NCBI GenBank assembly: GCA_964588165.1
Contig: CAZPMS010000005.1
Span: forward strand, 3,411-67,410
Length of the DNA stretch: 64,000 bases
From: an uncultured Gammaproteobacteria bacterium
GTDB lineage: Bacteria > Patescibacteriota > Patescibacteriia > UBA1558 > UBA10009
Reading direction: 5' to 3'
Part shown: positions 2 to 49,188 of the stretch, one piece after another
Layout: every line of letters starts with the position of its first letter
Numbering within the stretch: the stretch's first letter is position 1
The notes under the pieces: generated by a model
Seen by the model: the letters and a program-made list of their open reading frames with translations, nothing else
Databases searched by the model: none
Told to the model about the DNA's origin: nothing
Translations under genes and position numbers: made by a program

Positions 2-451
2 AAACTAATTTTGGTAAAGGATCACATTAGCAACCACTGCCCAAATCCCCTAATCGGCCCCAATGATGATAGCCTTGGTACTCGTTTTCCAGGCATGGGG
101 AATGCCTACTCACAACGCTTAAGAGATTTGGCCCAAAAAATCGCTACTGAAAAATTTGGAGCTGAATTATCTGAAGGCATCAGCATCTTCCATTTGGGCC
201 CAGGCTACGAGACGCCTGCTGAAGTTCAAGACTACATAAATCGTAAAGCTAACCTAACTACCATGAGTACCATTCCTTCAATCATTGCCGCCCAGCACAT
301 GGGGGTAGAAGTTTTAGATATTGCCAACCCAACCAACTTTGCTTGTGGTATTAATGATAGCCAGCCAAACCATGAAGAGGTTGAGGCTATGAGCAAAATA
401 ATAGAAACAGACTTAATCTCTCTGATTACGGGTGTTATTGCCCAGCTCTAA
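2..451 (+). CDS. Purine nucleoside phosphorylase family protein, C-terminal part (5' end truncated by window edge)
   Basis: Open frame running in from the window start. The translation (LIGPNDDSLGTRFPGMGNAYSQRLRDL...HLGPGYETPAEV...STIPSIIAAQHMGVEVL) matches the PNP/MTAP family-2 fold motifs. A rho-independent terminator follows. Confidence 0.7.
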   Translation, partial: KLILVKDHISNHCPNPLIGPNDDSLGTRFPGMGNAYSQRLRDLAQKIATEKFGAELSEGISIFHLGPGYETPAEVQDYINRKANLTTMSTIPSIIAAQHMGVEVLDIANPTNFACGINDSQPNHEEVEAMSKIIETDLISLITGVIAQL

Positions 452-992: not shown

Positions 993-1715
993 ATGAACAC
1001 CAGCGGCAGTATAGATTGGAATGAAGCCGGCAGAGGCTTCAACATCGTCAACCAATTTCTTAGTAAAATCAATACGACATTAAAACACTGCTTTTTAGGT
1101 GTCGACCTAGAACTAATTGAATGGCTAGTAAATGGAGGCAAACACGTACTTATTGAACATGTCAAACAGATGGCCCAAACTTTTCTTGGTAATGCTCTAA
1201 CCAGGAATGTCCGCAAAACACATATGATGGTCAATCTGTCCTCACCACTGTCTCACCCAATCTATAGAACTGAAGTTGCCTTGAATGACCTAATAGAGGG
1301 TGATGGAAAATGGATCACTTTCTATCGCAATAGAAAGGGCCAACCAATGATCAAGTACTCAGACGGTAAATGGAGAATAATTAAACTCGTTCCCGTCAAA
1401 GACAGAATGGGCTCTCAGAAAATTCCAAGGTCAAAAGCCCCTTCTCTGCTAGAAGAAGGCGAAGAGCTTATAAACTTGCACATTTTGGTTGCCCTGACAT
1501 CCAACAAATCTGTCATTCCAATCACCTGGACAACTGAAGGAAAACATGGTAGCCAACTCCGCCGAATCTTTTTCTTGGGCAACCATGACACCGGCATATC
1601 CGAACTCGAAACCTACTGGCTAGAGGGTTATTTGCAAGATCCCCGCATTCGGCATGAAGATCAAGGCTCAAACTTCAAAAATAAGGATTGGCTGGCTGTA
1701 ACTGTGGCTGCCTAA
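993..1715 (+). CDS. Hypothetical protein. Compositionally atypical (GC-richer) orphan ORF with a strong SD (AAGGAG, 7-nt spacer).
   Basis: 240-aa ORF with no motif I recognise. GC content is visibly higher than in flanking genes. A terminator hairpin follows it. Confidence 0.5.
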   Translation: MNTSGSIDWNEAGRGFNIVNQFLSKINTTLKHCFLGVDLELIEWLVNGGKHVLIEHVKQMAQTFLGNALTRNVRKTHMMVNLSSPLSHPIYRTEVALNDLIEGDGKWITFYRNRKGQPMIKYSDGKWRIIKLVPVKDRMGSQKIPRSKAPSLLEEGEELINLHILVALTSNKSVIPITWTTEGKHGSQLRRIFFLGNHDTGISELETYWLEGYLQDPRIRHEDQGSNFKNKDWLAVTVAA

Positions 1716-1929: not shown

Positions 1930-2475
1930 ATGGCTAAAATAAAGCAAAAATTCATCAAAAAAAGCCTTATTATGCTGGATAAAATCCTGCCAGTATTCTT
2001 ACTGGTGGTTATTATAACCCTATCAATGCCACACTTAAGTTTGGCTTCTGGGTTAGTAGATGTGCCAGCTACTCCTCAATTACCATATATTGCCGGTAAA
2101 ATTGAGTACTTAAAGGCTTATAGTTATCATATTCCCAGATTACCCGGTACGGCTGAAAAAAGGGAAGCCAGATACACCTATAAAATCTGGATGACTGCTT
2201 ATAACAGTTTGCCTGGCCAAACTGATAGCACTCCTTGTATTACCGCTTCTGGCATGGATGTTTGTGAACGCGACCGTGAAGATATTATTGCTACCAACTT
2301 TTTAAGGTTGCCGTTTGGCACTAAAGTTAGATTCCCGGAACTTTATGGTTCAAAAATCTTTACTGTCCAAGATAGAATGAATTCCAGGTATTGGAAAAAT
2401 GCTGATATTTGGCTAAAAGATTATGCTGAAGCTAAAAGCTTTGGTAGAAAATGGACCACTATTGAAATATTTTAA
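1930..2475 (+). CDS. Secreted 3D-domain (MltA/RlpA-like double-psi beta-barrel) cell-wall-binding protein
   Basis: N-terminal TM/signal segment. The C-terminal region (TPCITASGMDV...IIATNFLRLPFGTKVRF) resembles the 3D/DPBB domain. Confidence 0.5.
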   Translation: MAKIKQKFIKKSLIMLDKILPVFLLVVIITLSMPHLSLASGLVDVPATPQLPYIAGKIEYLKAYSYHIPRLPGTAEKREARYTYKIWMTAYNSLPGQTDSTPCITASGMDVCERDREDIIATNFLRLPFGTKVRFPELYGSKIFTVQDRMNSRYWKNADIWLKDYAEAKSFGRKWTTIEIF

Positions 2476-2500
2476 ACTTAAAGTTGCTTAGATACAAAAA

Positions 2501-2526
2501 ATCCCAGATTTATCTGGGATTTTTTA
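2501..2526 (+). terminator. Rho-independent terminator (atcccagat..atctgggat + T5)
   Basis: Inverted repeat plus T-run after the stop of the 3D-domain gene. Confidence 0.65.
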
Positions 2527-2641
2527 ATCATTCTGTTAATAACTCTGTTAATAACGTGGTATTGCATTAATATATATACTATAATAATAAAATAAAGGTC
2601 GAATAATAAAATATAATTTATAAATAATAAATAAAAAAATA

Positions 2642-3178
2642 ATGAATAAAAAACTATTAGTAGCTATTTTTTCTATTATTCTTTTTGTAACTTTAATTTT
2701 TGTGGGCAGTGTATATGCAATCGGATATTTGGAAGTAAGCTTAAGCGATGACACGCCTCCCGGAGGCTTTATTTCTCCTACCTCCACCAATGTCGCTTTT
2801 GTTAGTGTAGATTTTACAAATACAGCCAGTAGTACCGAAGCCATTACGATTGAAGATATTGCTTTCAAAAATTATGGAACATCTTCCTCTACAAATCAAG
2901 TGCTATCTAGATGGTATCTCTATGATGATACGGGTCTGATCGCCTCTTCTACCGATTATCTTACCCCTAAAATAGCCGTCTTCTATGATATTAATTACGT
3001 CATTCCAACAAGCACTGTAAAAACCTTAACCTTTAAAGGAGACCTGGGAAATGGCGCAACTTCAAGCGAAACTATAATAGTCGGAATTAATAATGAAAGC
3101 TTTATCAATACCTCACCTACCAGCACCGAAATATTCGGAGAATTCCCAATTATAGGTAATACCTTTACTATTGAATAA
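2642..3178 (+). CDS. Secreted Ser/Thr-rich hypothetical protein
   Basis: 178 aa with an N-terminal signal/TM segment. The remainder is rich in S/T and predicted extracellular. No recognised domain. Confidence 0.5.
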   Translation: MNKKLLVAIFSIILFVTLIFVGSVYAIGYLEVSLSDDTPPGGFISPTSTNVAFVSVDFTNTASSTEAITIEDIAFKNYGTSSSTNQVLSRWYLYDDTGLIASSTDYLTPKIAVFYDINYVIPTSTVKTLTFKGDLGNGATSSETIIVGINNESFINTSPTSTEIFGEFPIIGNTFTIE

Positions 3179-3200
3179 TAGCATCAGAAAGCTCAAAAAT

Positions 3201-3228
3201 CCCCGGTAATCTTACCGGGGATTTTTTG
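3201..3228 (+). terminator. Rho-independent terminator (ccccggta-atct-taccgggg + T6)
   Basis: 8-bp GC stem plus ATTTTTTG. Confidence 0.7.
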
Positions 3229-3249
3229 ATTTGGTCGAGCTAAACTCGA

Positions 3250-3324
<75 letters not shown>

Positions 3325-3441
3325 ACGCTTTTTGGGCCACTTGCTGTGTCCGCCTTTGGCGGAGCTACGTGGCTATTTTGTCACCGTTGACTATAGCAAA
3401 GCTGGCTGTAAAAATCAAGAATAAAATGCTAAGATAACTTT

Positions 3442-3936
3442 ATGAAAAAAGCCTTATTAATCATTGATGTCCAAAATTATTTTATCAATAAATGGACCCA
3501 AAATGTGCCCCAAAAAATAGTTAAACTAATTGAAGAAGATGATTTTCCTATTATCATTTTCACTAAATTCGTAAATACGCCAGACAGCCATTTTGTTAAA
3601 CAATTCAACTATACAGAATGTACCAAGCCGCCTTATACCGATATAGTGGCTGATCTTTTACCTTGGGTTAAAAAGGATAACGTTTTTGTCAAAAATACTT
3701 ATTCTTCTTTTTTTGATTCTGAGTTTACCAACTATCTTAAAAAGAAAAAAATTGAGGAGCTGATAATTGTTGGGCTTGATACAGAAAATTGCGTGCTAAC
3801 AAATTCTAGGGCTGCTTTTGATAACGGCTATAAAGTTTCTGTGGTGGCCAACTGTTGCGGCAGTTCAACAAGTGGTGATGAAATGCATAAAGCTGCCTTG
3901 GAAATAATAAAAAATAATATAGGTGATGTAATTTAA
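3442..3936 (+). CDS. Isochorismatase-family cysteine hydrolase
   Basis: 164 aa. The LLIIDVQNYF ... IIVGLDTENCVLTNSRAAFDNGYKV pattern is typical of the isochorismatase-like fold, including the catalytic Cys region. Confidence 0.6.
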   Translation: MKKALLIIDVQNYFINKWTQNVPQKIVKLIEEDDFPIIIFTKFVNTPDSHFVKQFNYTECTKPPYTDIVADLLPWVKKDNVFVKNTYSSFFDSEFTNYLKKKKIEELIIVGLDTENCVLTNSRAAFDNGYKVSVVANCCGSSTSGDEMHKAALEIIKNNIGDVI

Positions 3937-3960
3937 TTTAAAACATTTATAAATGAAAAG

Positions 3961-4090
3961 TAGGACTGGGGGGTCTGGGGACGGGGCTTAACGCCAAGAC
4001 AAAATCTTTAGAAGCTTAATAAAGCTGAGAGTTAATTTTCGCCCCCAGGGGTTTTTGGTCCTTTTTGGCCGCAAAAAGGGCATAAAGAAA
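3961..4090. repeat. Copy A of a ~130-bp repeated intergenic element (second copy at 12861-12995), ending 3 nt before the polA ATG. Contains the 8-4-8 palindrome CCTTTTTG-GCCG-CAAAAAGG.
   Basis: Direct comparison of the two copies by eye shows a shared GC-rich 5' part (ctggggRcgGcgCTTArCGCCAAGACAAAAT), a shared AGCTGAGAGyTAATT block and a shared GGTTTTTGGTCCTTTTTG-N4-CAAAAAGG 3' part. Confidence 0.6.
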
Positions 4091-4092
4091 GT

Positions 4093-6828
4093 ATGTCTAA
4101 TAAATTTAAAAAAAAGTTTGTAATTATCGACGGTAATGCCCTATTACACAGGGCTTTTCATGCCTTACCGCCCATGACCACTAAAGATGGCACTCTGGTT
4201 AATGCTGCTTACGGTTTTACTTCAATCCTATTAAAAATTATTAAAGAATTACAGCCAGATTATTTATGTGCATCTTTTGATAGGAAAGGTACTACCCTAC
4301 GGGCTGAAGAATTTGCCGAATATAAAGCCCAAAGAAAAAAACAGCCGGATGAACTTTATGCTCAAATTCCGATTATAGAAAATATTTTAGAGGCTTTTAA
4401 TATCCCGGTAATTGATTCTGAAAAAGCAGGCTACGAAGCAGATGATGTTATTGGCACAGTTGTAACTAAACTGACTAAAAGCAATCCTGATATAATCAAC
4501 CTAATAGTGACTGGTGATTTGGATGCTTTGCAGTTGGTAAATAAAAACGTGGAAGTTTTTACTCTTAAAAAAGGTATTTCCGATACTATTACCTATGGCA
4601 TAAAAACTGTTGAAGATAGATACGGAATTAAACCAGAACAATTAATAGATTACAAAGCTTTACGCGGTGACCCATCTGATAATATTCCTGGTGTAAAAGG
4701 TATCGGCGAAAAAACTGCTACTAATTTAATTAAAGAATTCGGCAGTTTGGAAAATCTTTATAAAAAATTTGATAAGGCTGATCTTAAAGATAGAACCAAA
4801 CAACTTCTCAAAGAGAATAAAGACGAAGCTTTTTTAAGTAAAAAACTGGTTACCATTCAAACTGATCTACCTACTAACTTTAAGCTTAAAGATACTAAAA
4901 TTGAAGGCATTAACGGACCGGCCGTAGTTAAACTGTTTACCGAGTTGGAATTTAGAAGCTTAATGAATAAAATTCCTACTGAAGTTGAGGGTATAAAAAA
5001 ACAAGGACAAGATACAATGGAATTTGTAACTTTAGAAACTAAGACTGATGATAAATTTAAATATCAATTAATAAATACTGATGATAAATTTGATAAATTC
5101 CTAAATGATTTAAAAAAACAAAAGGAATTCGCTATTGATACCGAAACTACTTCGCTGGACGTTTGGCAAGCCAAGCTTTTAGGCATCAGTTTTTCTTGGA
5201 AAAAAGATACTGCCTTTTATATTGCCAAACCAACCAACCAATGGTTAAAACAATTAAAACCAATTCTGGAGGATGAGAATATCAAAAAAGTAGGCCATCA
5301 TTTAAAATACGATTATGAAATTTTAATGCAACATGATATTTACTTAAAAGGAATTGGTTTCGACACTTTACTGGCTGCTTACCTTTTAACTTCCGGTTCC
5401 AGAAATCTAGGTTTAGACGATCTGGTTTTTGCCGAACTGGGTTATAGGATGAAACCAATTGAAGACTTAATTGGTTCAAAAGGCAAAAATCAATTAACCA
5501 TGGATAAAGTGCCAGTTGACCAAGTTAGCTGGTATGCCTGTGAAGATGCTGACTTTACCTTAAAACTGGCCAAAGAACTAAAACCTAGGTTAGAAAAAAT
5601 TTCTGATATTGGACTCTTGGAAAAACTGGAGCTGCCAATTATTCCAGTGCTGGCCGACATGGAACAGCAAGGCATTAAAATTGATAAAGGATTTTTAAAA
5701 AAACTGGATCAAGAATTCACCAAGAAGATAAAAAAAGTTAAAGAAAAAATATATAAACTTTCGGGTGCTGAGTTTAATATTGCCTCTCCCCTTCAACTTA
5801 AAGAAATTTTATTTGCCAAACTGGAGATTGATTCCAAAGGGCTTAAAAAAACTAAAACCGGCATTTCTACCGCAGCTGGTGAATTGGAAAAAATGAAAGA
5901 TAGGCACGAAATTATTCCGCTTATTTCTGAATTTAGGGAATATAGTAAATTACAAAATACTTATACCAAGGCTTTATCTAAACTGACTGATAAAAATGAT
6001 AGAATCCATACCAGCTTTAACCAAACAGTTACAGCTACCGGCCGATTTTCTTCTTCTAACCCTAATCTGCAAAACATTCCTATTAGAACGGAATTGGGTA
6101 GAGAAATAAGAAAAGCTTTTGTAGCTGAATCAGGCATGGCTTTAATGGCTGCCGACTATTCACAAATTGAACTAAGAACCATTGCTTCGTTGGCAAATGA
6201 CGACAAGATGATTGCTTCATTTAAAAAAGACGAGGATATCCATGCCCGAACAGCCGCCACCATAAATAAAATTGATATTAGCGAAGTTACCAGCCAACAA
6301 AGGCGGGCCGCTAAAGAAGTAAACTTTGGAGTTATTTACGGCCTGGGCTCAACCGGCCTGGCCCAGCGAACCGGCATTACCAGGCCAGAGGCTAAAGAAT
6401 TTATTAATAAATATTTTAAACTTTACCCTAAGGTAAAAAATTGGCTGGATGAAACCAAACAAATTGCAGCTAGAGATGGCTTTGTAGAAACCTTACTGGG
6501 CCGGAGAAGATATCTGCCAGATATTAATTCCGGCGTGCAAATGATTAGAGCAGCTGCCGAACGAATGGCCATTAATGCTCCTATCCAGGGTACAGCCGCA
6601 GATTTACTTAAAATGGCGATGATTAAAATTCATAACCAACTGCCTGATATTTCAGCCAAATCCAAAATGCTCTTAACTGTCCATGATGAACTGGTTTTTG
6701 AAGTGCCTAAGAATGAAGTTGACAAGGTATCTAAATTCATTAAAAATACAATGGAAAACATCTATACCTTAAAAGTTCCCATTAAGGTTGATGTCCATTC
6801 AGCAAATAACTGGGGTGACTGCAAGTAA
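4093..6828 (+). CDS. polA: DNA polymerase I
   Basis: 911 aa covering the 5'-3' exonuclease domain, the 3'-5' exo-like domain, polymerase motif B (RRAAKEVNFGVIYG) and motif C (HDE). Confidence 0.97.
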   Translation: MSNKFKKKFVIIDGNALLHRAFHALPPMTTKDGTLVNAAYGFTSILLKIIKELQPDYLCASFDRKGTTLRAEEFAEYKAQRKKQPDELYAQIPIIENILEAFNIPVIDSEKAGYEADDVIGTVVTKLTKSNPDIINLIVTGDLDALQLVNKNVEVFTLKKGISDTITYGIKTVEDRYGIKPEQLIDYKALRGDPSDNIPGVKGIGEKTATNLIKEFGSLENLYKKFDKADLKDRTKQLLKENKDEAFLSKKLVTIQTDLPTNFKLKDTKIEGINGPAVVKLFTELEFRSLMNKIPTEVEGIKKQGQDTMEFVTLETKTDDKFKYQLINTDDKFDKFLNDLKKQKEFAIDTETTSLDVWQAKLLGISFSWKKDTAFYIAKPTNQWLKQLKPILEDENIKKVGHHLKYDYEILMQHDIYLKGIGFDTLLAAYLLTSGSRNLGLDDLVFAELGYRMKPIEDLIGSKGKNQLTMDKVPVDQVSWYACEDADFTLKLAKELKPRLEKISDIGLLEKLELPIIPVLADMEQQGIKIDKGFLKKLDQEFTKKIKKVKEKIYKLSGAEFNIASPLQLKEILFAKLEIDSKGLKKTKTGISTAAGELEKMKDRHEIIPLISEFREYSKLQNTYTKALSKLTDKNDRIHTSFNQTVTATGRFSSSNPNLQNIPIRTELGREIRKAFVAESGMALMAADYSQIELRTIASLANDDKMIASFKKDEDIHARTAATINKIDISEVTSQQRRAAKEVNFGVIYGLGSTGLAQRTGITRPEAKEFINKYFKLYPKVKNWLDETKQIAARDGFVETLLGRRRYLPDINSGVQMIRAAAERMAINAPIQGTAADLLKMAMIKIHNQLPDISAKSKMLLTVHDELVFEVPKNEVDKVSKFIKNTMENIYTLKVPIKVDVHSANNWGDCK

Positions 6829-6865: not shown

Positions 6866-7813
6866 ATGTTTCTATTCTTACACGGCGAAGATAGTTATCG
6901 TTCGCAAAAAAAACTTAATGAAATAACGGCTAAATTTAAAGAAAAAACTGACCCAACAGGTATAAATATAAATACTTTTTACGGGAAAGATTTTGATATT
7001 GAAAAATTTAATACTGCCTCCAGCCAATCCGGGTTTTTAGTAACTAAAAGATTAATAATTGTAAAAAACTTATTAACCAGTAAGCCTAAAAAGGATCTGG
7101 CCGGACAATTAACTGAATTATTAAAAAATTTAAAAGGCAGCGATAACATTTATATCTTTTGGGAACAAGGCAGCCCCGATAAACGTACGGCTTTATTTAA
7201 ACTTCTCAATAAAGAAAAAAAATACGTCCAGGAATTCAAGGCTTTGGAATACAAAGAACTAGCCGATTGGTTAAAAAATTATTTAAAAGAAGCCGGCAGT
7301 AAAATGACTACTTCGGCTCAACAACTTCTTTTATCTTTTACTGATAACAACTTATGGCAACTGGCCAATGAAGTTGATAAACTGGTAGCTTATAAAAAGA
7401 ACGAAGAAATTACCGAAGAAGATGTTAAACAAATGGTAACGGCCAAGGTTTATGAAAATATTTTCGGCTTAACTGATGCTATTGCCACAGGTGACAAAAA
7501 AAAGAGCCTGCAACTTTTGCAAGAACAGTTCCAGGCGGGCTTAAATGAACAATATGTTTTAACCATGATAATCAGGCAGTTTAGAATTTTGGCCCAACTT
7601 AAACCTTTGGCGGAAAAATATCCGGAATATCAGATCACCAAAGAGACTAAGCTTCATCCCTTTGTGGTTAAAAAAACCTTACCTCAAGTTAAAAAGTTTA
7701 CCGAAGAAAAAATAATAAAGATCTATGATCTGCTTAGCAATCTAGACAGAAAATTCAAATCTACTAAACTTTCTCCGCAAACCTTGATTGATTTGTTTAT
7801 AATGAAGATTTAA
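6866..7813 (+). CDS. holA: DNA polymerase III delta subunit
   Basis: 315 aa. The N-terminus (MFLFLHGEDSYRSQKKL) and overall architecture are typical of HolA. It sits directly downstream of polA. Confidence 0.75.
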   Translation: MFLFLHGEDSYRSQKKLNEITAKFKEKTDPTGININTFYGKDFDIEKFNTASSQSGFLVTKRLIIVKNLLTSKPKKDLAGQLTELLKNLKGSDNIYIFWEQGSPDKRTALFKLLNKEKKYVQEFKALEYKELADWLKNYLKEAGSKMTTSAQQLLLSFTDNNLWQLANEVDKLVAYKKNEEITEEDVKQMVTAKVYENIFGLTDAIATGDKKKSLQLLQEQFQAGLNEQYVLTMIIRQFRILAQLKPLAEKYPEYQITKETKLHPFVVKKTLPQVKKFTEEKIIKIYDLLSNLDRKFKSTKLSPQTLIDLFIMKI

Positions 7814-7847
7814 TTTAAGAAACTAAAAAACCTTGCTCAATATGTGG

Positions 7848-7867
7848 GAACGCGCCACGGCGCGTTC
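7848..7867. terminator. GC-rich hairpin (gaacgcgc-cacg-gcgcgttc) between the convergent genes holA and rpsT. Likely bidirectional terminator.
   Basis: Perfect 8-bp GC stem. T-rich tracts lie on both sides within about 20 nt. Confidence 0.5.
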
Positions 7868-7898
7868 ATACGTTTGAAGGCAAGATTTTTTTATTTAT

Positions 7899-8165
7899 TT
7901 ATTTCTTGGAAGTTTTGGTTTTTTTAGCAAGCCTAGATTTTCTCCTGTTGGCTGTGCCTTTCTTTAACCAGCCAGACTTTACGGCTTTATCAGCGGCTTT
8001 CTGGAACTTTTTGGTTAGTTCCTTTACTTCATCAGATTTACCGGCATCTACGGCTTTTAAAGTCTTTTTAATTAAATCCTTTAAGTTCTTTTTTTCAGCT
8101 GAATTTTTAGCAGTTAACTTTTTAGTTTGCCTTAAGGCTTTCTTAGCAGAATTTGTATTTGGCAT
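7899..8165 (-). CDS. rpsT: 30S ribosomal protein S20
   Basis: 88 aa. The highly basic sequence MPNTNSAKKALRQTKKLTAKN... is a characteristic S20 signature. Confidence 0.9.
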   Translation of the reverse strand: MPNTNSAKKALRQTKKLTAKNSAEKKNLKDLIKKTLKAVDAGKSDEVKELTKKFQKAADKAVKSGWLKKGTANRRKSRLAKKTKTSKK

Positions 8166-8494: not shown

Positions 8495-8538
8495 ATAAAA
8501 ATCCGCTGAGTTTTAATCTCAACGGATAAATGACTTGA

Positions 8539-8832
8539 TCATTCGACAACTTTTACGTTCCAGAATAAATTGGATCTAAGGTTATATTCCAGCATAGCGC
8601 CTGTAGAATCAACTACGGTAGCCACTGTAGGACTCCAGGCACCCCTCTCAAGGTTTTTTACTTCCACTACTGCTGGGTTTACCAAGCTGATGACATTAAG
8701 CGCCCTCGAACTGTTGACCCAAAAATCACCCGTAAAAAATATTTCTGCTCCGCCAATAATAATTACACCAATCACAACGAAAACCAGTACAATCAACAAT
8801 TCGCTCAAGGCAAAGCCAGGCCTGCTCTTCAT
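8539..8832 (-). CDS. Type IV pilin / pseudopilin with prepilin N-terminal cleavage-methylation motif
   Basis: KSRPGFALSELLIVLVFVVIGVI is a class III signal (G|F-x-L-x-E-L-L-I-V) followed by a hydrophobic helix. Confidence 0.75.
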   Translation of the reverse strand: MKSRPGFALSELLIVLVFVVIGVIIIGGAEIFFTGDFWVNSSRALNVISLVNPAVVEVKNLERGAWSPTVATVVDSTGAMLEYNLRSNLFWNVKVVE

Positions 8833-10040: not shown

Positions 10041-10185
10041 ATTTAAAATTTTATTATTTTATTTGTCATCCCGGGCGGACCCGCCAATGCGGCGGATAGT
10101 TGAGGGATTGACAAAATAGTTATTATAAGCTAATTTTATATATTCTTTTGAACCTTTTAACCAAGGAATACAAGGAGATTTTGAC

Positions 10186-10614
10186 ATGCGCATTTTTTAC
10201 GATTTAGTGTTTCTAGTGGCAGGAATATTGATAGGAGTAATGATTATTACTCTTATAAATATCTATAGCGACCAAAACGAGCTCTGCCCACTATGCCGAA
10301 TACAAGATGTTCAAGAAGAGATGGATAGAAATGATCATTTTGATTCATTGGCCAACATTGTCCAAAACATGAACCCGGAAATAGTTGTGGACGACAGTAG
10401 TCGAACGGTTATCAGTCTGTTCAAATATATGCCTCACGGTAGCCGGACTTTAGCGATTATTTCTACTGATACAGAAGAGGGCTTTGTAATTATCTGTGAG
10501 GGAATATTACATGATACGCTAGCAGCTACTGGGCTGGGGATAGGTGATATAATGACGGAAGTTGAACACAATACGTTTTTACAAATTACCAAGTGGCTCA
10601 ATAATCAAAGATAA
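10186..10614 (+). CDS. Hypothetical membrane-anchored protein. GC-richer orphan with a strong SD.
   Basis: 142 aa with one N-terminal TM segment. AAGGAG lies 7 nt upstream of the ATG. No recognised domain. Confidence 0.45.
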   Translation: MRIFYDLVFLVAGILIGVMIITLINIYSDQNELCPLCRIQDVQEEMDRNDHFDSLANIVQNMNPEIVVDDSSRTVISLFKYMPHGSRTLAIISTDTEEGFVIICEGILHDTLAATGLGIGDIMTEVEHNTFLQITKWLNNQR

Positions 10615-10645
10615 TCTCCTCCGCCTCCTTAACTAAACCCGACTA

Positions 10646-12757
10646 CTACAGTTGGGTTTTTAATTTTTTAAGCTGTTTTATTTTATCTCTTAACTCGGCC
10701 GCTTTTTCAAATTCCAAATTTTCAGCAGCCAGCTTCATCTCATTTACTAAACCATTAACAATTCTTCTTAATTCATCTTTAGGAATAGTTTTGTAATCTT
10801 TTAATTCCTCCCTTTTTGTAGCCAGGAGTGACTTAGCAGACCTGGCTTTAATATCTTTAGGGCTAAACTTAAGGCTATCGCCTACTTCTTTTTCAATCGA
10901 CTTAGGTTTTATCTTATGTTCTTTATTAAAATCTTCTTGGATATGGCGCCTACGCTCCACTTCACCAATTGCCCGTTTCATGGAACCTGTCATCTTATCA
11001 GCATACATTATTACCCTGCCCTCTTGGTGACGAGCGGCTCGGCCCATGGTTTGGATTAACGAAGTTTCTGACCGTAGGAAACCCTCCTTATCGGCATCTA
11101 AGATTGCTACTAATGTTACTTCGGGTAAATCCAAGCCTTCTCGCAATAAATTGATGCCTACCAAAACATCAACCTTGCCCATTCTTAAATCCCTTAAAAT
11201 ATCCAAACGTTCTAAAGTATTTATTTCGGAATGAAGATAGTGGGATTTGATTTTAAGTTCTTTGAGATATTCACTAATCTCTTCAGCCAGCCTTTTAGTT
11301 AGGGTGGTTACCAAAACCCGTTGTTTGTTTTTAATAGTTTTCTTAATCTCTTCCAATAAATTATCCAGTTGATTATCAGTTGGCCTGATTTCTATAGCTG
11401 GATCCAATAAACCGGTTGGCCTGATAACTTGCTGGGTAACAGCCGATGATGGATTATGGATTATAGATTCTAAATCTTTCTTATCAACCAACTCCTTCAT
11501 CAGATTTCCGACTTTAACTTTCTTGGTCTTTACTCCGGATTGGCGATATTCATAAGCAGCCGGTGTAGCCGAAACATAAACTACTTTATTTATATGTTTG
11601 GCAAATTCAGCAAACTTTAAAGGGCGGTTATCCAGGGCCGAAGGCAGCCTAAAGCCAAAATCTATTAAAGTCTGTTTTCTGGATCTGTCACCGTTATACA
11701 TGCCGTTAATTTGCGGAACCGTCATGTGCGATTCATCAATAAACATTAAAAAATCGTCTGGGAAAAAATCCATTAAAGTTGCTGCCTGCTCTCCGGGCTT
11801 ACGGCCGGTTAAATACCTGGAATAATTTTCTATGCCATTGCAGTAGCCTACTTCTTCCATCATTTCCAAATCATAATTGGTTCGCTGCTCTATCCTTTGT
11901 GCTTCTATTAATAAATTTTTACTTTTTAAATATTCAACTCGCTCTTCCATATCTTTCCTTATTTGAACAAATGAACTTTTTAACCTTTCTTCCGGAGTTA
12001 CAAAATGCTTACCTGGAAAAATATCATACTGGATCATGGGTTTTGGATCATGGGTTATTCTTTTCCCTGTTATATAATCTACTTTTGATAAAATCTCAAT
12101 CTTATCACCATCAAATTCTATTCTGATGATTTGATTTTTCTCTTCCACCGGAAATACTTCCACTGTATCGCCTCTTACTCTAAAGTTGCCCCGATAAAAA
12201 CCTTCATCATTCCTAGTATATTGTAATTCAGTTAAGTTCCTTAAAAACTTATCTCTCTTTTTAATGTTGCCCACCTTTAATTTAATACTCATGTTTTCAT
12301 AATCAGTTGGCGATCCTAATCCATAGATGCAAGAAACCGAAGCTACAATAATAACATCTTTTCTGGTTAGCAAAGCATTGGTAGAAGCATGCCTTAAGCG
12401 CTCAATCTCTTCATTAATATCTGCTTCCTTTTCTATATAGGTGTCAGTAGAAGGCTTATAGGCTTCTGGTTGGTAATAATCGTAGTAGCTGACAAAATAA
12501 TGTACCGAGTTATTAGGGAAAAATTCCCTGAATTCTGAAGCTAGCTGGGCCGCCAAAGTTTTGTTATGGGAAATAATTAAAGTGGGTTTTTGGACTTTTT
12601 GGATAATATTAGCCATGGTAAACGTTTTACCACTTCCGGTCACGCCCAAAAGCGTCTGGTGCTTTTTGCCAGCTTCTATGCCGCGAATCAACTTCTTAAT
12701 TGCTTGAGGTTGATCACCCGTAGGTTTGAAATTAGATTTTAATTTAAAACTACCCAT
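10646..12757 (-). CDS. uvrB: Excinuclease ABC subunit B
   Basis: 703 aa with Walker A ([10 protein letters not shown]), helicase motifs and the C-terminal UvrB/UvrC interaction helix. Confidence 0.97.
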
Positions 12758-12860: not shown

Positions 12861-12995
12861 ATGAATAGAGAGTCAGGGGCCTGGGGGCGGCGCTTAGCGC
12901 CAAGACAAAATAATAAAAGATAAACAGAGCTGAGAGCTAATTGGCGCCCCTAGTGGTTTTTGGTCCTTTTTGCCACCAAAAAGGACAAGTGAATT
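12861..12995. repeat. Copy B of the ~130-bp repeated element (see 3961-4090). Contains CCTTTTTG-CCAC-CAAAAAGG.
   Basis: About 75-80% identity to copy A over its length, with the palindrome arms perfectly conserved. Lies between the uvrB promoter and the 3' end of the orphan gene at 13064-13480. Confidence 0.6.
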
Positions 12996-13002
12996 GATTT
13001 TT

Positions 13003-13038
13003 AAGACCAAAAAAAGAGCGGTTGGGACTTACCGCTCT
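13003..13038 (-). terminator. Terminator for the minus-strand orphan gene (gagcggt-tgggactt-accgctc hairpin, then a T-run on the minus strand)
   Basis: 7-bp stem. On the minus strand the hairpin is followed by TTTTTTTGG. Confidence 0.5.
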
Positions 13039-13063
13039 AAGCTGGATTATGAAAATAAAAAAT

Positions 13064-13480
13064 CTATTTGTTGTCTGGTGCAAGCTTACAAATTATATCA
13101 AACTTATCTAGAATTCCTCCACCAGGACAAGCCTTATCTACTGCTTGAATAATACTAGCCAAAGAATTATATACATCTTTTACGGCCCAGTTTGGCAACT
13201 CGTGAGTACCACTTAGCCACCTGTCCTTTTTAACAGGCACCATAACCCACAAACGTGAAACAGTTCCTGATCGACCCGGAACTCTGTCCTCCGCCAGCTT
13301 TAGAGAAACCAACCTACAACTAGTTGGTGTGACATTTTTCACCTTTTGAGGAAAAACATCTCTAAAAGGAACTATACAATCGTCCAAAAAACCCATCACT
13401 CTTCGAATGGCAGCCCTTTGACGATCAAGTTCTTCAGCTCCACGAAGAAATAGCTCAACATCAACCGCGTTTGTATTCAT
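13064..13480 (-). CDS. Hypothetical protein. GC-rich orphan ORF with a strong SD (AAGGAG, 5-nt spacer), 138 aa from the internal Met.
   Basis: The track ORF is 13064-13555. The Met with RBS ggagattacaATG at 13480 is the probable start. No recognised domain. GC content is clearly above neighbouring DNA. Confidence 0.45.
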   Translation of the reverse strand: MNTNAVDVELFLRGAEELDRQRAAIRRVMGFLDDCIVPFRDVFPQKVKNVTPTSCRLVSLKLAEDRVPGRSGTVSRLWVMVPVKKDRWLSGTHELPNWAVKDVYNSLASIIQAVDKACPGGGILDKFDIICKLAPDNK

Positions 13481-13671
13481 TGTAATCTCCTTATCCCGTG
13501 TCCGGGATGTTTGGCATGTCGGCCTTGTTAATGTCCCGTATTTGCTACAATCCAACTTTTATATTTTAAACTTATATATTATTTTGTCAATTTATTTTTA
13601 AATCTAAGACAAAAAAATCTCATATAAAAAACTTCCACCTGGTGGCAGAAGCTAGCTATGATTTATAGCTA

Positions 13672-14205
13672 TTAGTTTTGCGGAATTCCATGCAGCCTTA
13701 ATTGTATTCCACCGTAATAATCCAGCAACATAATTATGGCTGACCATAGTCCAGCAACAATTACTGTGGCCCAAAAATTTACCAGGGCAATCAAAGGCAG
13801 TAAATGCCAGACATCAAAAATGCTAAGATGTTTTAATTTCTGCTTACTCACAATTATCGAAACTATTGACGGACCTAGTAAATAAATAACTCCCAAGGGG
13901 TAAAAAAAACTTACATATTTGTAACATGAATATGCTACGACTGCCCCTATAGTAATTGCATTGGCCCAAGCATCAGTGTCATAGCTACCCAATCTTCCCT
14001 CAACACAAGGCAATACATTATCATCATCGGAAGGATCATATTTTCCGTACATATTAGAAAAAACAATCCCCATAACTAACCAAGCAGGGCCAAAAAATGC
14101 CATAGCTTTGAATATGACCGACAAGTCTGGGATAGAAGTTTCACCAAAAGTCATCAAAAAAGCCATAAGCAACCACATTACTACAAAAAAGCCTGGCGAA
14201 ATCAT
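13672..14205 (-). CDS. Polytopic membrane protein, function unknown
   Basis: 177 aa with four or five predicted TM helices. No recognised motif. Confidence 0.45.
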   Translation of the reverse strand: MISPGFFVVMWLLMAFLMTFGETSIPDLSVIFKAMAFFGPAWLVMGIVFSNMYGKYDPSDDDNVLPCVEGRLGSYDTDAWANAITIGAVVAYSCYKYVSFFYPLGVIYLLGPSIVSIIVSKQKLKHLSIFDVWHLLPLIALVNFWATVIVAGLWSAIIMLLDYYGGIQLRLHGIPQN

Positions 14206-14409
14206 GACTCTTCCTTCCGTTAAACTTTTTAAATGTGCTGTGAGACTTTTACCTTATATTATAGATGCTCCACTGTCAATTGATTTTTAAGCCCAAAATT
14301 GCTACATTTATAAACATAGATAGCACGGATTAAATCACTGATTGACGCGAATCTATCCGCGGACATCAGCGAAAATCTGCGATCTAAATTAGCGTTATCC
14401 GCGATAAAT

Positions 14410-16920: not shown

Positions 16921-16938
16921 TAAAAAGTTGGGATAAAA

Positions 16939-17003
16939 TTAGGATGCTAGAATGCTAGTTTACTGACATCCTAACCTCCTGACATCCTAACCTCCTAAAT
17001 ACT
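16939..17003 (+). promoter_or_regulatory. Conserved promoter/leader module, copy 1: extended -10 (TGcTAGAAT) plus two tandem CATCCTAACCTCCT boxes ending 7 nt before the ATG
   Basis: ttAGGATGCTAGAATGCTAGTTTACT..GACATCCTAACCTCCTGACATCCTAACCTCCTaaatactATG. Near-identical modules occur at 23144-23207 and 61314-61395. Confidence 0.5.
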
Positions 17004-17480: not shown

Positions 17481-18773
17481 ATGAAAGAATTAATTAAAAA
17501 AATGTTACCGCCGTTTATCTTGAGCTGGTATCACAAAATACTGGCTCTTTTAGCTATGGCTGTTTATAGTAATCCATCAAATAAACTTATAGTTATTGGC
17601 GTAACCGGCACCAATGGTAAATCATCAGTAGTTAATTTAATTGGTGATGTTTTGGAGAAAACCGGCTACAAAGTTGCCTGGAGCTCTACTGTTAACTTTA
17701 AAATAGCCGGTAAGGATTGGCTGAATAATAAAAAGATGACCATGTTGGGCCGGTTCCAAACCCAAAAATTTTTAAAGCAGGCTGTCCAGGTAGAATGTAA
17801 ATATGCTGTTATAGAAACTTCTTCCGAAGGCATAAAGCAGTTTAGGCACCTGGGTATTAATTATGATATTGCCGTTTTTACCAACTTAACTCCGGAACAT
17901 ATAGAATCACACGGCGGATTTGATAATTATAAAAAAGCTAAAGGAGAACTTTTCAAACATCTAACTTCCAAAACTAAAAAAACCATTAGTGGTAAACAAA
18001 TTGATAAAGTTATTGTTGCCAATAATGACGATGAATATGCCCAATACTTTTTAAACTTTAAAGCAGATAAAAAAATTACCTTCTCTATTGATCAGCATTC
18101 TGACTTTAAGGCTACTGATGTAAAGCTTGAATCCAATGGTTCATGGTTCATGGTTCATGGTTCATCATTTAAAACCAATCTCTTGGGTAAAGTAAATATC
18201 TATAATTACTTGGCAGCCATTGCCGTAGCAAAAAGCCAAAACATTGATGATAAAAAAATTAAACAAGCCCTGCTGACATATCAAGGTATACCTGGACGGT
18301 TTGAGTTTATAAAAACTGACCAAGGCTTTAAAGTAATGGTAGATTATGCACCTGAACCGGAATCATTAAAACAACTTTATAATACTTTAAAAATATTTAA
18401 CTTTAATAAAATAATTCATGTATTGGGTTCTTGCGGCGGCGGACGTGATGTAAGCCGGCAACCTGTTTTAGGAAAAATGGCTGCTGAAAATTCTGATTAT
18501 GTAATTATAACCAACGAAGACCCCTACGATGATGATCCTCAAAAAATAATTGATAACGTAGCCACAGGCGCTGAAGCCAACGGCAAAACTTTAGATAAAG
18601 ATTTATTTAAAATTTTAGACAGACACGAAGCCATTAAAAAAGCTTTATCACTTGCAACTGATGACGACTTGGTTTTAATAACTGGCAAAGGTTCAGAACA
18701 ATACATTTGTGTAGCTGGCAACAAAAAAATCCCCTGGGATGACAGAGAGGTGGTTAGAAAGTTGTTAAAATAA
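17481..18773 (+). CDS. murE: Mur ligase family protein, MurE-like (UDP-N-acetylmuramoyl-tripeptide synthetase)
   Basis: 430 aa with the P-loop VIGVTGTNGKSS and the middle and C-terminal Mur ligase domains. Contains an in-frame (tggttca)x4 repeat. Confidence 0.75.
   Translation: MKELIKKMLPPFILSWYHKILALLAMAVYSNPSNKLIVIGVTGTNGKSSVVNLIGDVLEKTGYKVAWSSTVNFKIAGKDWLNNKKMTMLGRFQTQKFLKQAVQVECKYAVIETSSEGIKQFRHLGINYDIAVFTNLTPEHIESHGGFDNYKKAKGELFKHLTSKTKKTISGKQIDKVIVANNDDEYAQYFLNFKADKKITFSIDQHSDFKATDVKLESNGSWFMVHGSSFKTNLLGKVNIYNYLAAIAVAKSQNIDDKKIKQALLTYQGIPGRFEFIKTDQGFKVMVDYAPEPESLKQLYNTLKIFNFNKIIHVLGSCGGGRDVSRQPVLGKMAAENSDYVIITNEDPYDDDPQKIIDNVATGAEANGKTLDKDLFKILDRHEAIKKALSLATDDDLVLITGKGSEQYICVAGNKKIPWDDREVVRKLLK
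18137..18164. repeat. Heptamer tandem repeat (tggttca)x4 inside murE. Encodes GSWFMVHGSS.
   Basis: Seen directly. The same heptamer is repeated at 39311-39329 and once more at 39862-39876 inside the O-antigen ligase gene. Confidence 0.8.
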
Positions 18774-23132: not shown

Positions 23133-23143
23133 ATTAAGATAAT

Positions 23144-23207
23144 AAGAATGCTAGAATGTCAGTTTACTATCGTTCTAACCTCCTAGCATCCTAACCTTCT
23201 ATTAAAT
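23144..23207 (+). promoter_or_regulatory. Conserved promoter/leader module, copy 2, between rpoB and rpoC (extended -10 TGcTAGAAT plus CATCCTAACCTTCT box before the ATG)
   Basis: taAGAATGCTAGAATGTCAGTTTACT...TAGCATCCTAACCTTCTattaaatATG. Compare 16939-17003 and 61314-61395. Confidence 0.5.
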
Positions 23208-28178: not shown

Positions 28179-28276
28179 AGTTTATTTATGTTAGTTAGTT
28201 ATTAAAGACTACTTATTAATATAAATACATTTTGCGAATTTTGTAAAGCACATAATAAAATAAATAATTAAAAAAC

Positions 28277-28305
28277 CGACTCTTAAATGAATCGGTTTTA
28301 TGATT
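28277..28305 (-). terminator. Terminator for the orphan gene at 28325-28711 (aaccga-loop-tcggtt, then a T-run on the minus strand)
   Basis: Hairpin immediately 3' of the stop codon on the minus strand. Confidence 0.4.
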
Positions 28306-28324: not shown

Positions 28325-28711
28325 CTATCTTTTCTCCTCAGTATTCACTTCAAAAATACTAAAAGCATCAGAGTAGGGCCCCATAAACAAAAAGGCTGTC
28401 TTTGTTTCACCTTCTAGCTTTAAATAGGCTCCAGGACCTTTTACTCCATAAGGTCCATAAGGAGGCGGAAATTGTTTTATTTCAACCTCCATTAACTCCA
28501 CAGTAAAATTGCTTTGTATAGCAACTTCAGCTTTCAACCTTAACAAAGCACTCCGATGAAGCCGGTGGCCATATATTAAAGGATTGATAAGATTAAGATA
28601 TGAGATGGTGGAAAGTTTTTCTGGTGGCAACTCCACTTTAGCCATACAAGCAATAATCTGACCCCACTCGTTAGGGTGTCGCTCAATAAATGCAGAATAG
28701 TCTTGATCCAT
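28325..28711 (-). CDS. Hypothetical protein. Cassette gene 1, GC-richer orphan with a strong SD (AAGGAAGGAG).
   Basis: 128 aa with no recognised domain. Part of three consecutive minus-strand orphan genes, each with its own terminator. Confidence 0.45.
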   Translation of the reverse strand: MDQDYSAFIERHPNEWGQIIACMAKVELPPEKLSTISYLNLINPLIYGHRLHRSALLRLKAEVAIQSNFTVELMEVEIKQFPPPYGPYGVKGPGAYLKLEGETKTAFLFMGPYSDAFSIFEVNTEEKR

Positions 28712-28800
28712 CTTACTTCTCCTTCCTTGACCAACGGCCTTTTATTACAAAGAACTTTTTTCTCTCAAAATCCACTTTTTAAAAATGAACTTTGGAAGAA

Positions 28801-28823
28801 AGGCGAGAATAAATTTCTCGCCT
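28801..28823 (-). terminator. Hairpin aggcgagaa-taaat-ttctcgcct, terminator of cassette gene 2. A paralogous copy lies at 29301-29323.
   Basis: 9-bp stem about 25 nt 3' of the stop codon of the gene at 28848-29195. The hairpin sequence is repeated downstream of the next gene. Confidence 0.45.
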
Positions 28824-28847
28824 CCGGAATGGAAAACGTAGAAAACT

Positions 28848-29195
28848 CTACTGATGTAATCTGGCATGAGCTTGCCTGCCTCGCTCTGTTGGTTGTGTGC
28901 CGCGAAACAGGGTCGCCATACTAACATCTTGCTGACGCATAACATCTATTTGCCTGTCTTGGTCCTCAACAAGCTTTTGAAGCCGAACAACCTTGGCTTC
29001 CAAATCTTTGCGAGATATAACTACAAAAATACCTAAAGGTAAACCTATTACCATCAACGCTATTCCAGCAGTCGCGCAATCTCTCGCAAAATTGACTTCA
29101 TACCCCAGTGTAAAACCTGGAATAATAATCAATAAAAGGCCGATACAAGCTACAGAAAAACAAACTACTTTATCTGATACAGTGCTCCTCTTCAT
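28848..29195 (-). CDS. Hypothetical membrane protein with C-terminal coiled-coil. Cassette gene 2, GC-richer orphan with a strong SD.
   Basis: 115 aa with two TM helices and a charged helical tail (RLQKLVEDQDRQIDVMRQQD). Confidence 0.45.
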   Translation of the reverse strand: MKRSTVSDKVVCFSVACIGLLLIIIPGFTLGYEVNFARDCATAGIALMVIGLPLGIFVVISRKDLEAKVVRLQKLVEDQDRQIDVMRQQDVSMATLFRGTQPTERGRQAHARLHQ

Positions 29196-29212
29196 CTTCC
29201 TATCCCCTTGTT

Positions 29213-29230
29213 TTAGCTATTTCTAGCCAA
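29213..29230. promoter_or_regulatory. Operator-like palindrome TTAGCTA-TTTC-TAGCCAA in the leader of cassette gene 2 (one mismatch from TTGGCTA-N4-TAGCCAA)
   Basis: Lies immediately upstream of the SD on the minus strand. Part of a ~45-nt leader conserved with the gene-3 leader (GATTGTwCATTTCArGTTAAwTTTGGCTArAAATAGCyAAAACA). Confidence 0.4.
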
Positions 29231-29300
29231 ATTTAACTGAAATGAACAATCGCTTTTCCCTTTCAAAATTTACTTCTTTTTGAAATAAACTTTGAAAGGA

Positions 29301-29323
29301 AGGCGAGAAATTCATTCTCGCCT
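29301..29323 (-). terminator. Hairpin aggcgaga-aattcat-tctcgcct, terminator of cassette gene 3 and paralogue of 28801-28823
   Basis: 8-bp stem about 55 nt 3' of the stop codon of the gene at 29380-29661. Confidence 0.45.
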
Positions 29324-29379
29324 TCGAGGTAGAGGAAGACAGGAAATAATTAAATTTATTAGCTCGACGGGGATTTTGA

Positions 29380-29661
29380 TTACTTAACAACCGGCCCTGT
29401 AATCACCTTTTTAATTACAAAATATGTTTGAGGACCAAGTCCAGCTTTGGGCTTCGGTAGCTGAATTTCAAATTTCCTAGGCCCATCAATTAACTGCCTA
29501 ACTTGCGGATTGAGTCTAACTCCGCTCTGCTCAACAGAAAATTTGGTTATAGCGGCTGTCAATTGCCAGATATTTAATTCATGAACAACCAACTGTTCCT
29601 CGGCAAACTTACCATTCTGAAAAATCCAAAAAACAATAGTAAACTTTCGTTTCTGTTCCAT
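29380..29661 (-). CDS. Hypothetical protein. Cassette gene 3, GC-richer orphan with SD CAGGAGAG.
   Basis: 93 aa with no recognised domain. Confidence 0.45.
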   Translation of the reverse strand: MEQKRKFTIVFWIFQNGKFAEEQLVVHELNIWQLTAAITKFSVEQSGVRLNPQVRQLIDGPRKFEIQLPKPKAGLGPQTYFVIKKVITGPVVK

Positions 29662-29678
29662 CTGTCTACTCTCCTGTT

Positions 29679-29696
29679 TTGGCTATTTTTAGCCAA
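29679..29696. promoter_or_regulatory. Perfect palindrome TTGGCTA-TTTT-TAGCCAA in the intergenic region shared by cassette gene 3 and the divergent TrmB-like regulator
   Basis: Perfect 7-4-7 dyad directly abutting the SD of the gene at 29380-29661. Confidence 0.45.
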
Positions 29697-31418: not shown

Positions 31419-31485
31419 CACCAAAAAGGGCCCTTAAAAAGGGCTTTTAAAATTGGCTTAAAAGTGTTAAAATTAGCCTATTAAT

Positions 31486-49187: not shown

Positions 49188-49188
49188 T

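Follow-up and report, generated by a model that had tools for sequence, protein, structure and literature searches.

The 64,000-nucleotide stretch of contig CAZPMS010000005.1 considered here (the window; 35.6% GC, 64 genes scored) contains two classes of gene that differ in how their translation appears to be initiated. The great majority, including polA, rpoB, rpoC and recA, lack a Shine-Dalgarno (SD) sequence, whereas eleven small open reading frames (ORFs) are preceded by a strong one, are somewhat GC-richer and lie, wherever the comparison could be made, outside the gene order shared with relatives. With moderate confidence these SD-led units are read as moron-like accessory cassettes of the flexible genome of the Candidate Phyla Radiation (CPR), existing alongside an SD-less core. 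Judged from PolA identity and gene content, the source is a Patescibacteria (CPR) bacterium close to 'Candidatus Komeilibacteria': the nearest PolAs are those of 'Ca. Komeilibacteria' and other Patescibacteria metagenome-assembled genomes (66-76% identity), and the window has CPR-like gene content such as tandem type IV secretion system (T4SS)-pilin paralogues, DUF2079, FBPase_3, TrmB and a nucleoside deoxyribosyltransferase. Two polA loci of relatives, L018 (PolA 66% identical over the full length) and L027 (76% over the C-terminal half), serve repeatedly for comparison, as do L001 and L015, which are neighbouring stretches of the window's own contig.

When the 20 nt 5' of the 64 gene starts were scored for pairing with ACCUCCUUA, an AAGGAG-type SD was found 5-9 nt from the ATG in 11 genes, or about one in six. 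A first-pass annotation had credited six ORFs (those at 993, 10186, 13064, 28325, 28848 and 29380) with such sequences and this is borne out, albeit with variants at 28848 (AAGGGGATAGGAAG) and 29380 (AGGAG at a spacing of 9 nt); five more can be added, at 8539, 13672, 37598, 38188 and 60909. The exact hexamer stands 6-8 nt from the ATG in seven of the eleven, among them 993, 10186, 13064 and 28325. That core genes are without an SD likewise holds for rpoB, rpoC, recA and polA, and the rpoB and recA leaders quoted at the time are correct. Indeed none of the 53 remaining genes has an SD, duplex energies being above -5 kcal/mol in all except a marginal Wzy gene. In the leaders of these genes A predominates at -6 to -3, position -1 is T in 68% and G is scarce, with no more than 6% over the last eleven positions except at -6 (13%). 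The 16S rRNA encoded on the same contig ends in ...GGATCACCTCCTTTCTA, so that a canonical anti-SD is present. Initiation regions (-30 to +30) of the SD-less genes have 25% GC and a minimum free energy of -3.95 kcal/mol, compared with 40% and -7.25 kcal/mol for the SD-led ORFs (p=0.002). In several SD-less genes only 6-7 nt separate the end of a TATAAT from the ATG, the distance being 6 nt in the promoters of both the MGMT-like gene (promoter region 480-516) and PGI (60852-60888), and the sequence suggests that some core genes, such as these two, are leaderless.

In the mechanism proposed, core genes would start without an SD from initiation regions that are very AT-rich, unstructured and in some cases apparently leaderless, whereas a cassette would consist of a 5' untranslated region (5'UTR) with an AAGGAG-type SD able to pair with the intact 16S anti-SD, an ORF and a terminator of its own; the SD would presumably allow the GC-richer, more structured cassette mRNAs to be translated. 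Two other observations concern these signals. An AAGGAG lies 4 nt before the ATG of an 80-aa antisense ORF over the start of ftsK (31473-31715, minus strand); the spacing is short and the occurrence is probably due to chance. A 75-nt leader repeat with tandem CATCCTAACCTCC units, whose sense is that of the anti-SD and not that of the SD, is found at 16937-17003, 23141-23207 and 61287-61395 and also in L015 5' of a penicillin-binding protein (PBP) gene (2155-5088, minus strand), so that it stands directly 5' of the DUF1003, rpoC, yebC and PBP genes; predicted hairpins in it pair TTAGGATG with CATCCTAA.

The SD data also bear on the most sceptical view of the ORFs, namely that intergenic DNA of locally higher GC has stayed open by chance and holds no genes there, AT-rich stop codons being rare in GC-rich stretches. 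It is true that they are known from sequence alone, that ten of the eleven are without homologues and that long random ORFs in AT-rich genomes skew towards higher GC. AAGGAG as such occurs at chance level in the window (35 copies on both strands, 34 expected); the exact hexamer at 6-8 nt heads seven ORFs of at least 90 aa, compared with 0.00 in 100 Markov shuffles. Moreover, a strong intrinsic terminator lies 3' of all eleven, and these include most of the top-scoring terminators of their regions, while near-consensus promoters (11/12 hexamer positions) precede three ORFs only, 13064, 37598 and 38188. One of the eleven, 993, has conserved homologues, the transmembrane (TM)-segment patterns are coherent and independent pipelines predicted a gene at every one of the eleven. 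That the ORFs are accidental is, on this evidence, hardly credible.

Composition gives a less clear-cut picture than the SD. The six ORFs first noticed had been described as visibly GC-richer than polA, rpoB, rpoC and recA, and the SD-led genes are indeed GC-richer as a group (40.1% against 35.3%, p ~1e-4, a difference that persists among genes of up to 250 aa), but the values for 993, 10186, 13064, 28325, 28848 and 29380 (43.2, 38.2, 41.7, 39.3, 42.5 and 38.7%, respectively) are matched by rpoB (40.0%) and recA (41.6%), with rpoC at 38.0% and polA at 35.3%, and three of the six reach just 38-39%. GC above that of every SD-less gene is confined to 993, 8539, 13064, 28848 and 38188. Gene-by-gene analysis revealed a higher GC3 in the SD-led class (0.372, compared with 0.304-0.309 for the SD-less genes as per-gene mean and pooled value) and a higher GC at two-fold sites (0.321 against 0.221, p=5e-7), but no excess at four-fold degenerate sites (0.355 against 0.385, not significant). 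AAG, GAG and TTG are used more, TTA and NNC codons less, and there are fewer Lys and more Val residues. As SD-less genes without a Pfam match have core-like codon usage, the atypical usage tracks the SD class and not the lack of annotation. The GC contrast is thus a real group trend but a modest one, and it has to do with codon usage and amino-acid content, not with a simple mutational GC bias. Across 16 Patescibacteria loci SD-led ORFs account for 11 of 140 and have on average 4.9% more GC than their own locus (p=0.01), and they recur next to polA in three relatives (L018, L020 and L023); the pattern of SD-led, GC-richer ORFs is therefore lineage-wide in these loci.

The window proteins were compared with the polA loci of relatives by tblastn, and a backbone consisting of MGMT, g1930, isochorismatase, polA, holA, rpsT, g8249, truB, uvrB, ruvA, femAB and a nucleotidyltransferase (NTP-transferase) gene was found to be kept. 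In the covered stretch 13 of the 16 SD-less genes have syntenic homologues, compared with none of the five SD-led ORFs (Fisher p ~0.003), a difference in line with the accessory character proposed for the latter. The slots that could be compared were that of 993 in L018 and those of 8539, 10186 and 13064/13672 in L027, but not 28325-29661, 37598/38188 and 60909. In L018 g1930 comes immediately after MGMT, leaving no room for the 993 ORF, and g8249 and truB abut in L027, leaving none for the 8539 ORF. The truB-uvrB slot, which holds 10186 in the window, is occupied in L027 by a different SD-led ORF of 155 aa that does not align with 10186 even at E<=100, and the uvrB-ruvA slot, which holds 13064 and 13672, by an IS200/Y1-transposase-like ORF (7392-7955, minus strand). 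The SD-led ORFs therefore lie outside the conserved backbone, and relatives either lack them or have unrelated ORFs in their place. Other accessory or mobile genes occupy variable slots of the relatives too: besides the IS200-like ORF of L027 there is, 3' of rpsT in L018, a RelE/ParE-like toxin-antitoxin pair (7502-7907, minus strand).

An important consideration is whether such ORFs need have been acquired at all, since they might be old, fast-evolving genes native to the lineage, small envelope proteins being apt to diverge quickly and the SD having been kept for monocistronic genes with longer, structured leaders. Several observations fit: sister cassettes in the window keep their promoters although the proteins are 27% identical or unalignable, implying very fast divergence of the ORFs; the SD-led ORF in the truB-uvrB slot of L027 is akin to 10186 in size, orientation and N-terminal hydrophobicity; SD-led ORFs recur by polA in three relatives; and four-fold-site GC equals that of the core. 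However, the complete lack of alignment between the two truB-uvrB slot ORFs and the lack of space for 993 in L018 and for 8539 in L027 are difficult to reconcile with simple descent, the 993 family occurs in unrelated contexts in five genomes, and the 993 unit is demonstrably inserted, the MGMT tail having been disrupted and replaced. Native origin therefore seems unlikely.

The 993 unit is a ~960-bp insertion by which the MGMT-like gene (516-839) lost its original 3' end to a position further downstream. An 18-bp direct repeat (TAAAAAATACCTTTGGCA) occurs in two exact copies, one at 806-823 in the final codons of that gene and one at 1768-1785, the null maximum for flank pairs being 12. Between them, at 824-1767 on the plus strand, lies the inserted cassette, which comprises a surrogate MGMT tail (QPNTS; this and the other tails quoted end in a stop codon), a TTGACA, a palindrome, a leader of ~120 nt, the SD (980-985), the ORF (993-1715, 240 aa, no TM segment) and an intrinsic terminator (1735-1759; an 11-bp stem, then T7) that ranks first among those of the first 20 kb. 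The right repeat copy and the displaced native MGMT 3' end, KKYLWHPKKMK, follow at 1768-1800, and this displaced tail is closer to the MGMT end in L018 (TKHLWRPKL) than is the present end, KKYLWQPNTS. Beyond it the promoter of g1930 (TTGACA...AATCTGCTAATAT, 1846-1874) is conserved with L018. The repeat, the displaced tail and the conserved promoter together lead to the conclusion that ~960 bp entered the MGMT 3' end. As expected of integration by a single crossover or of the att type, the incoming DNA brought both a surrogate tail and a degenerate version of the promoter region. This att-type arrangement (repeats at 806 and 1768, new tail QPNTS, displaced tail HPKKMK) is peculiar to 993. The predicted empty-site allele of MGMT would read ...GATCTTAAAAAATACCTTTGGCATCCTAAAAAGATGAAGTAA and the predicted circular junction ...CAAGGCTTTTTTTGTAAAAAATACCTTTGGCAGCCGAACAC. 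No recombinase or integrase is present in the insert (824-1767), its sole content being one 240-aa ORF without a recombinase domain. Five IMG/VR matches to the 18-mer do not extend past it and are ascribed to chance.

Much of what the first-pass annotation had said of 993 survives this analysis: an integration scar of the kind envisaged is present and the terminator is confirmed at 1735-1759. The palindrome exists as well (TTAGATAAcTTATCTAA, 854-870, overlapping the weak -10), but near-matches are expected about twice per window by chance and it was rejected as a special signal, not being statistically unusual. The description of the flanks as promoter-less is roughly right in that there is just a weak -10, although a perfect -35 hexamer, TTGACA, is found at 836-841.

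No recognisable family had been assigned to 993, and as far as curated libraries are concerned this stands; a word-indexed search with the protein gave only the self match and a GTDB scan gave none. However, an exhaustive HMMER (phmmer) search of 1.84 billion cluster representatives yielded three remote homologues of similar length (P0002-P0004, E-values 2.7e-7, 1.3e-4 and 2.9e-4), and a metagenome scan added two more. The alignments extend over ~190 residues at 25-30% identity, with W-L and A-V-x-x-A remnants at the C-terminus. In the loci L098, L103 and L104 the 3' end of the homologue is the variable region (VR) of a diversity-generating retroelement (DGR), with a template repeat (TR) of 123-128 nt downstream; VR/TR pairs were verified for the P0002, L103 and L104 homologues, and mismatches fall at TR adenines in 23/23 cases in L098, 20/20 in L103 and 11/12 in L104. 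These DGR loci of other Patescibacteria (L098 5705-8555, L103 2797-3953, L104 1846-3028) each contain a target gene and a TR, with a reverse transcriptase (RT) bearing the motifs LGNLTSQ and YADD in L098, while the L103 and L104 contigs end before any RT. DGRs are abundant in the CPR (PMC8144416, PMC11661182). Every member of the 993 family is SD-led, and the members occupy five unrelated genomic contexts on Patescibacteria-like contigs.

On the strength of these alignments the DGR variable (target) proteins of Patescibacteria are distant homologues of 993, which is probably a stand-alone descendant of a DGR target that is no longer diversified. A TR partner for its 3' end (1500-1760) was sought in the window, both by relaxed blastn and with an adenine-blind scan, and by blastn in L001 and L015, with only the self match being recovered; there was no DGR RT (RVT_1) in the Pfam annotation or scans of the window genes or of L001 and L015, and no 3' end resembling an initiation of mutagenic homing (IMH) sequence in the window or those two stretches. 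The family's target 5'UTR, of ~150 nt, is conserved and includes a hairpin (GCCATAGCAGAAAG/TTTCTGCTGTGGC) that is unrecognisable at 993. Structure prediction for 993 was too weak to assign a fold, be it a C-type lectin or another of the known VR-displaying folds. A 13-bp repeat around the family member in L102 is just marginally above chance. The 993 protein may be a ligand-binding accessory protein. DGR variable proteins appear to move among Patescibacteria genomes as SD-led units, and the gene pool appears, as far as current libraries show, to be internal to the Patescibacteria.

This last point is relevant to the original proposal of recent horizontal acquisition from phage, plasmid or other bacteria, under which the ORFs would have retained the GC and SD of donors that use the SD and do not belong to the lineage. 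Their absence from syntenic slots and the insertion scar at 993 support acquisition as such, the atypical codon usage and higher bulk GC are in keeping with a foreign source, the promoter-ORF-terminator layout is moron-like and the DGR-family member in L104 adjoins an ORF whose N-terminus, as read by eye, may be that of a phage Bro-N domain. Nevertheless, no phage, plasmid or non-CPR donor emerged. None of the SD-led ORFs has a match in PHROGs, tblastn against INPHARED phages found none for 993, 13064, 28325, 10186 or 29380, PLSDB plasmids gave none for 993 and IMG/VR scans were empty, although CPR phages are poorly represented in the phage libraries used, leaving a CPR-phage source conceivable. 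In addition, 993 homologues come from Patescibacteria chromosomal contexts only, four-fold-site GC is not raised as foreign DNA might have it and two pairs of cassettes were duplicated in place. The term 'recent' cannot be given a date because the closest relatives share just 66-76% PolA identity. An outside donor is accordingly considered quite improbable.

The remaining SD-led units have the anatomy to be expected of the accessory cassettes favoured here. None of the eleven ORFs has a significant match in Pfam, NCBIfam, PHROG or PADLOC, and lack of a Pfam match is far more frequent among them than among the SD-less genes (11/11 against 7/53, Fisher p=4e-8). The products range from 93 to 240 aa, the leaders of the cassettes are put at roughly 50-190 nt, TM segments are predicted in seven, and each falls into a 90% cluster of one or two members from the same population. 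The cassettes would on these grounds constitute a flexible genome, occupying variable slots, atypical in codon usage, species-specific and coding mostly for envelope proteins (those with TM segments and one pilin-like), presumably with a surface or host-interaction role. As regards a promoter of its own, 993 has the TTGACA with its weak -10, and 8539 appears to share that of truB.

The pilin-like product is that of the 97-aa ORF at 8539-8832 (minus strand; terminator 8501-8527), which follows truB after a gap of 41 nt and probably shares its transcript. Type IV pilins and pseudopilins carry a class III signal, G-F-x-L-x-E, followed by a hydrophobic helix; the N-terminus of this ORF (RPGFALSELLIVL; MKSRPGFALSELLIVLVFVVIGV together with a hydrophobic segment over residues 3-39) resembles this arrangement, with no N_methyl Pfam match at E<=0.1. 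The ORF at 10186-10614 (plus strand; SD 10172-10177, terminator 10635-10659) encodes 142 aa with an N-terminal TM anchor. On the minus strand, the ORF at 13064-13480 encodes a soluble protein of 138 aa and has a promoter at 13563-13590 (TTGACA-16-TAAAAT), an SD at 13487-13492 and a terminator at 13015-13038, and that at 13672-14205 (SD GGAAGGAAG, terminator 13630-13653) encodes 177 aa with four hydrophobic segments; the two form a block (12992-14291) with a copy of a 14-bp direct repeat, AATTGATTTTTAAG, at either end (12992-13005 and 14278-14291), which as a scar is no more than suggestive. Also on the minus strand are a soluble 128-aa ORF at 28325-28711 (SD 28719-28724, terminator 28272-28299) and the 60909 cassette (60894-61202), which has an AAGGAGG SD at 61196-61202, an ORF of 93 aa with ~3 TM segments at 60909-61190 and a terminator at 60894-60918. 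Integron-type cassettes were considered for the units as a whole and rejected, as there is no common attC-like repeat and several units have promoters of their own.

The four other cassettes form two adjacent pairs. On the minus strand, the 28848 cassette (28777-29258) contains an ORF of 115 aa (28848-29195) with two TM segments and a charged tail, its shell being at 29193-29258 and its terminator at 28777-28826, and the 29380 cassette (29277-29724) contains a soluble ORF of 93 aa (29380-29661) with shell parts at 29659-29724 and 29277-29326; promoter/5'UTR and terminator are 77% and 78% identical between the two, and the proteins are unalignable. On the plus strand, the 37598 cassette (37528-38108) has a promoter, TTGACA-16-TGnTATAGT, at 37528-37555, an SD at 37586-37591, a multi-TM ORF of 157 aa (37598-38071) and a terminator at 38087-38108, and the 38188 cassette (38121-38604) has the same promoter type at 38121-38148, an SD at 38176-38181, a multi-TM ORF of 119 aa (38188-38547) and a terminator at 38583-38604. 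Here the promoters agree in 33/33 bases and the terminators are 82% identical, while the proteins are 27% identical (E=3e-4). Both pairs are, as their sequences indicate, local duplicates in which the ORFs have diverged or are unrelated. A 7-4-7 palindrome, TTGGCTA-N4-TAGCCAA, lies in the 5'UTR of 29380 (29679-29696), with an imperfect copy at 28848 (29213-29230), and adjoins a divergent TrmB-family regulator gene (29774-30601), beside which it may serve as an operator.

Two routes would thus lead to the present distribution of cassettes: insertion, as seen for 993 in the MGMT 3' end, and tandem duplication, after which the ORF diverged to an extreme degree or was replaced, as in 28848/29380 and 37598/38188. 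That the shells are better conserved than the cargo is the opposite of what ordinary duplication predicts. A more radical idea is that only a distinct tier of genes makes use of SD/anti-SD pairing, a tier made up of mobile or duplicating shell cassettes of ~0.4-1 kb with swappable surface ORFs that are exchanged among Patescibacteria, the tier being regulated through the availability of the anti-SD. In Bacteroidota, bS21 controls a regulon by way of anti-SD availability. The better preservation of shells than cargo and the repeats of 13-18 bp at two members of the 993 family are hints of such exchange, yet the idea is speculative and most probably wrong; if true, host-interaction genes would have a translation channel to themselves, and there would be an undescribed system of cassette exchange.

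A number of points weigh against reading the SD-led units as accessory cassettes. The sample amounts to ~76 kb of one genome, and expression of the ORFs is inferred from the sequence. The closest relatives are distant, so that absence might equal loss or divergence past recognition, and the orphan status of all ORFs but 993 rests on curated libraries and 90% clusters. Near-identical copies of the window (at least 99.7%) occur in ~12 metagenome assemblies and the population is essentially clonal, leaving dN/dS based on single-nucleotide polymorphisms without signal. Flanking repeats were sought at every cassette and at the SD-led ORFs of relatives and are clear at 993 only, the 14-bp repeat around 13064/13672 being marginal after multiple testing (null maximum 12; 14 cassette or block flank pairs). 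Finally, a PNP_UDP_1 nucleoside phosphorylase gene (window 11-451; full gene L001 8632-9459), an ordinary enzyme of 43-44% GC, is also SD-led (ACGGAGGG), which shows that the SD-led class is not strictly orphan, although this gene may be another acquired one. Two further SD-led ORFs just upstream of the window, one lipoprotein-like and one with a TM segment, have no Pfam match and conform to the pattern of the eleven.

Several repeated elements were noted elsewhere in the window. Small T4SS-pilin-like proteins (PF18895/TrbC) are encoded by 11 tandem paralogues at 46543-52593, with a conserved core of 56-107 nt in 8-9 copies. A GC-rich repeat of ~125 nt is present on the plus strand at 3955-4082 and 12871-12987 (81% identity), one copy stopping 11 nt before the polA ATG and the other having the start of uvrB on one side and the 13064 cassette on the other; the repeat is predicted to form a long hairpin and a second hairpin, with two compensatory pairs, and gave no Rfam family match and no blastn match in relatives. 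Runs of the heptamer CATGGTT are found in Mur-ligase and Wzy-like genes (18142-18178, 39306-39342 and 39852-39888), and the interior of the FtsK gene has acidic GAT/GAA-rich repeats (32062-32174 and 33698-33851).

The interest of the accessory-cassette reading lies in the biology of the CPR/Patescibacteria, which are uncultured episymbionts whose strain-specific surface genes probably set the hosts to which they can attach, yet escape homology-based annotation. If a strong SD marks accessory cassettes genome-wide, it would be a cheap flag, requiring only sequence, for the flexible gene pool, and the anti-SD would have been kept though used by a minority of genes, which bears on the evolution of SD-independent initiation. 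The 993 cassette would in addition illustrate how a DGR-target-type gene can travel, as a ~1-kb unit, without the retroelement.

Four known systems invite comparison. Phage morons, as Juhala and Hendrix are said to have described them in 2000, are independent promoter-ORF-terminator units inserted where related phages have two genes side by side. The SD-led units are similarly self-contained, lie between genes adjacent in relatives, have their own terminator and in some cases their own promoter, and share the atypical composition and codon usage and the accessory cargo, but they are located in a chromosome among polA, uvrB, rpoBC and recA with no nearby phage genes and no PHROG match, and there is the extra contrast here between SD-led cassettes and an SD-less backbone. 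Integrative islets target the 3' ends of genes, supply a surrogate end and are flanked by att direct repeats; 993 is like them in its 18-bp repeat and in that the frame of the target gene is kept open by five new codons at its end, the native tail lying downstream, and unlike them in that the 960-bp insert has no integrase or other mobility gene. With the DGR targets of Patescibacteria 993 shares an alignment of ~190 residues, a similar length, the SD and remnants of the C-terminal scaffold; it differs in having no TR, RT or IMH-like end in the stretches examined, in an identity of 25-30% and in the unrecognisable family hairpin. Lastly, SD-poor translation has reportedly been described in Bacteroidota, whose anti-SD is masked, by Baez in 2019 and Jha in 2021, and the window resembles that condition in that most genes are SD-less with A-rich, G-poor leaders and a small minority have a strong SD, but here the minority consists mainly of accessory genes (together with PNP_UDP_1) and not of genes such as rpsU. 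The anti-SD motif is missing in about half of the Parcubacteria (Tsurumaki et al., PMC9297842), whereas the 16S rRNA here keeps it.

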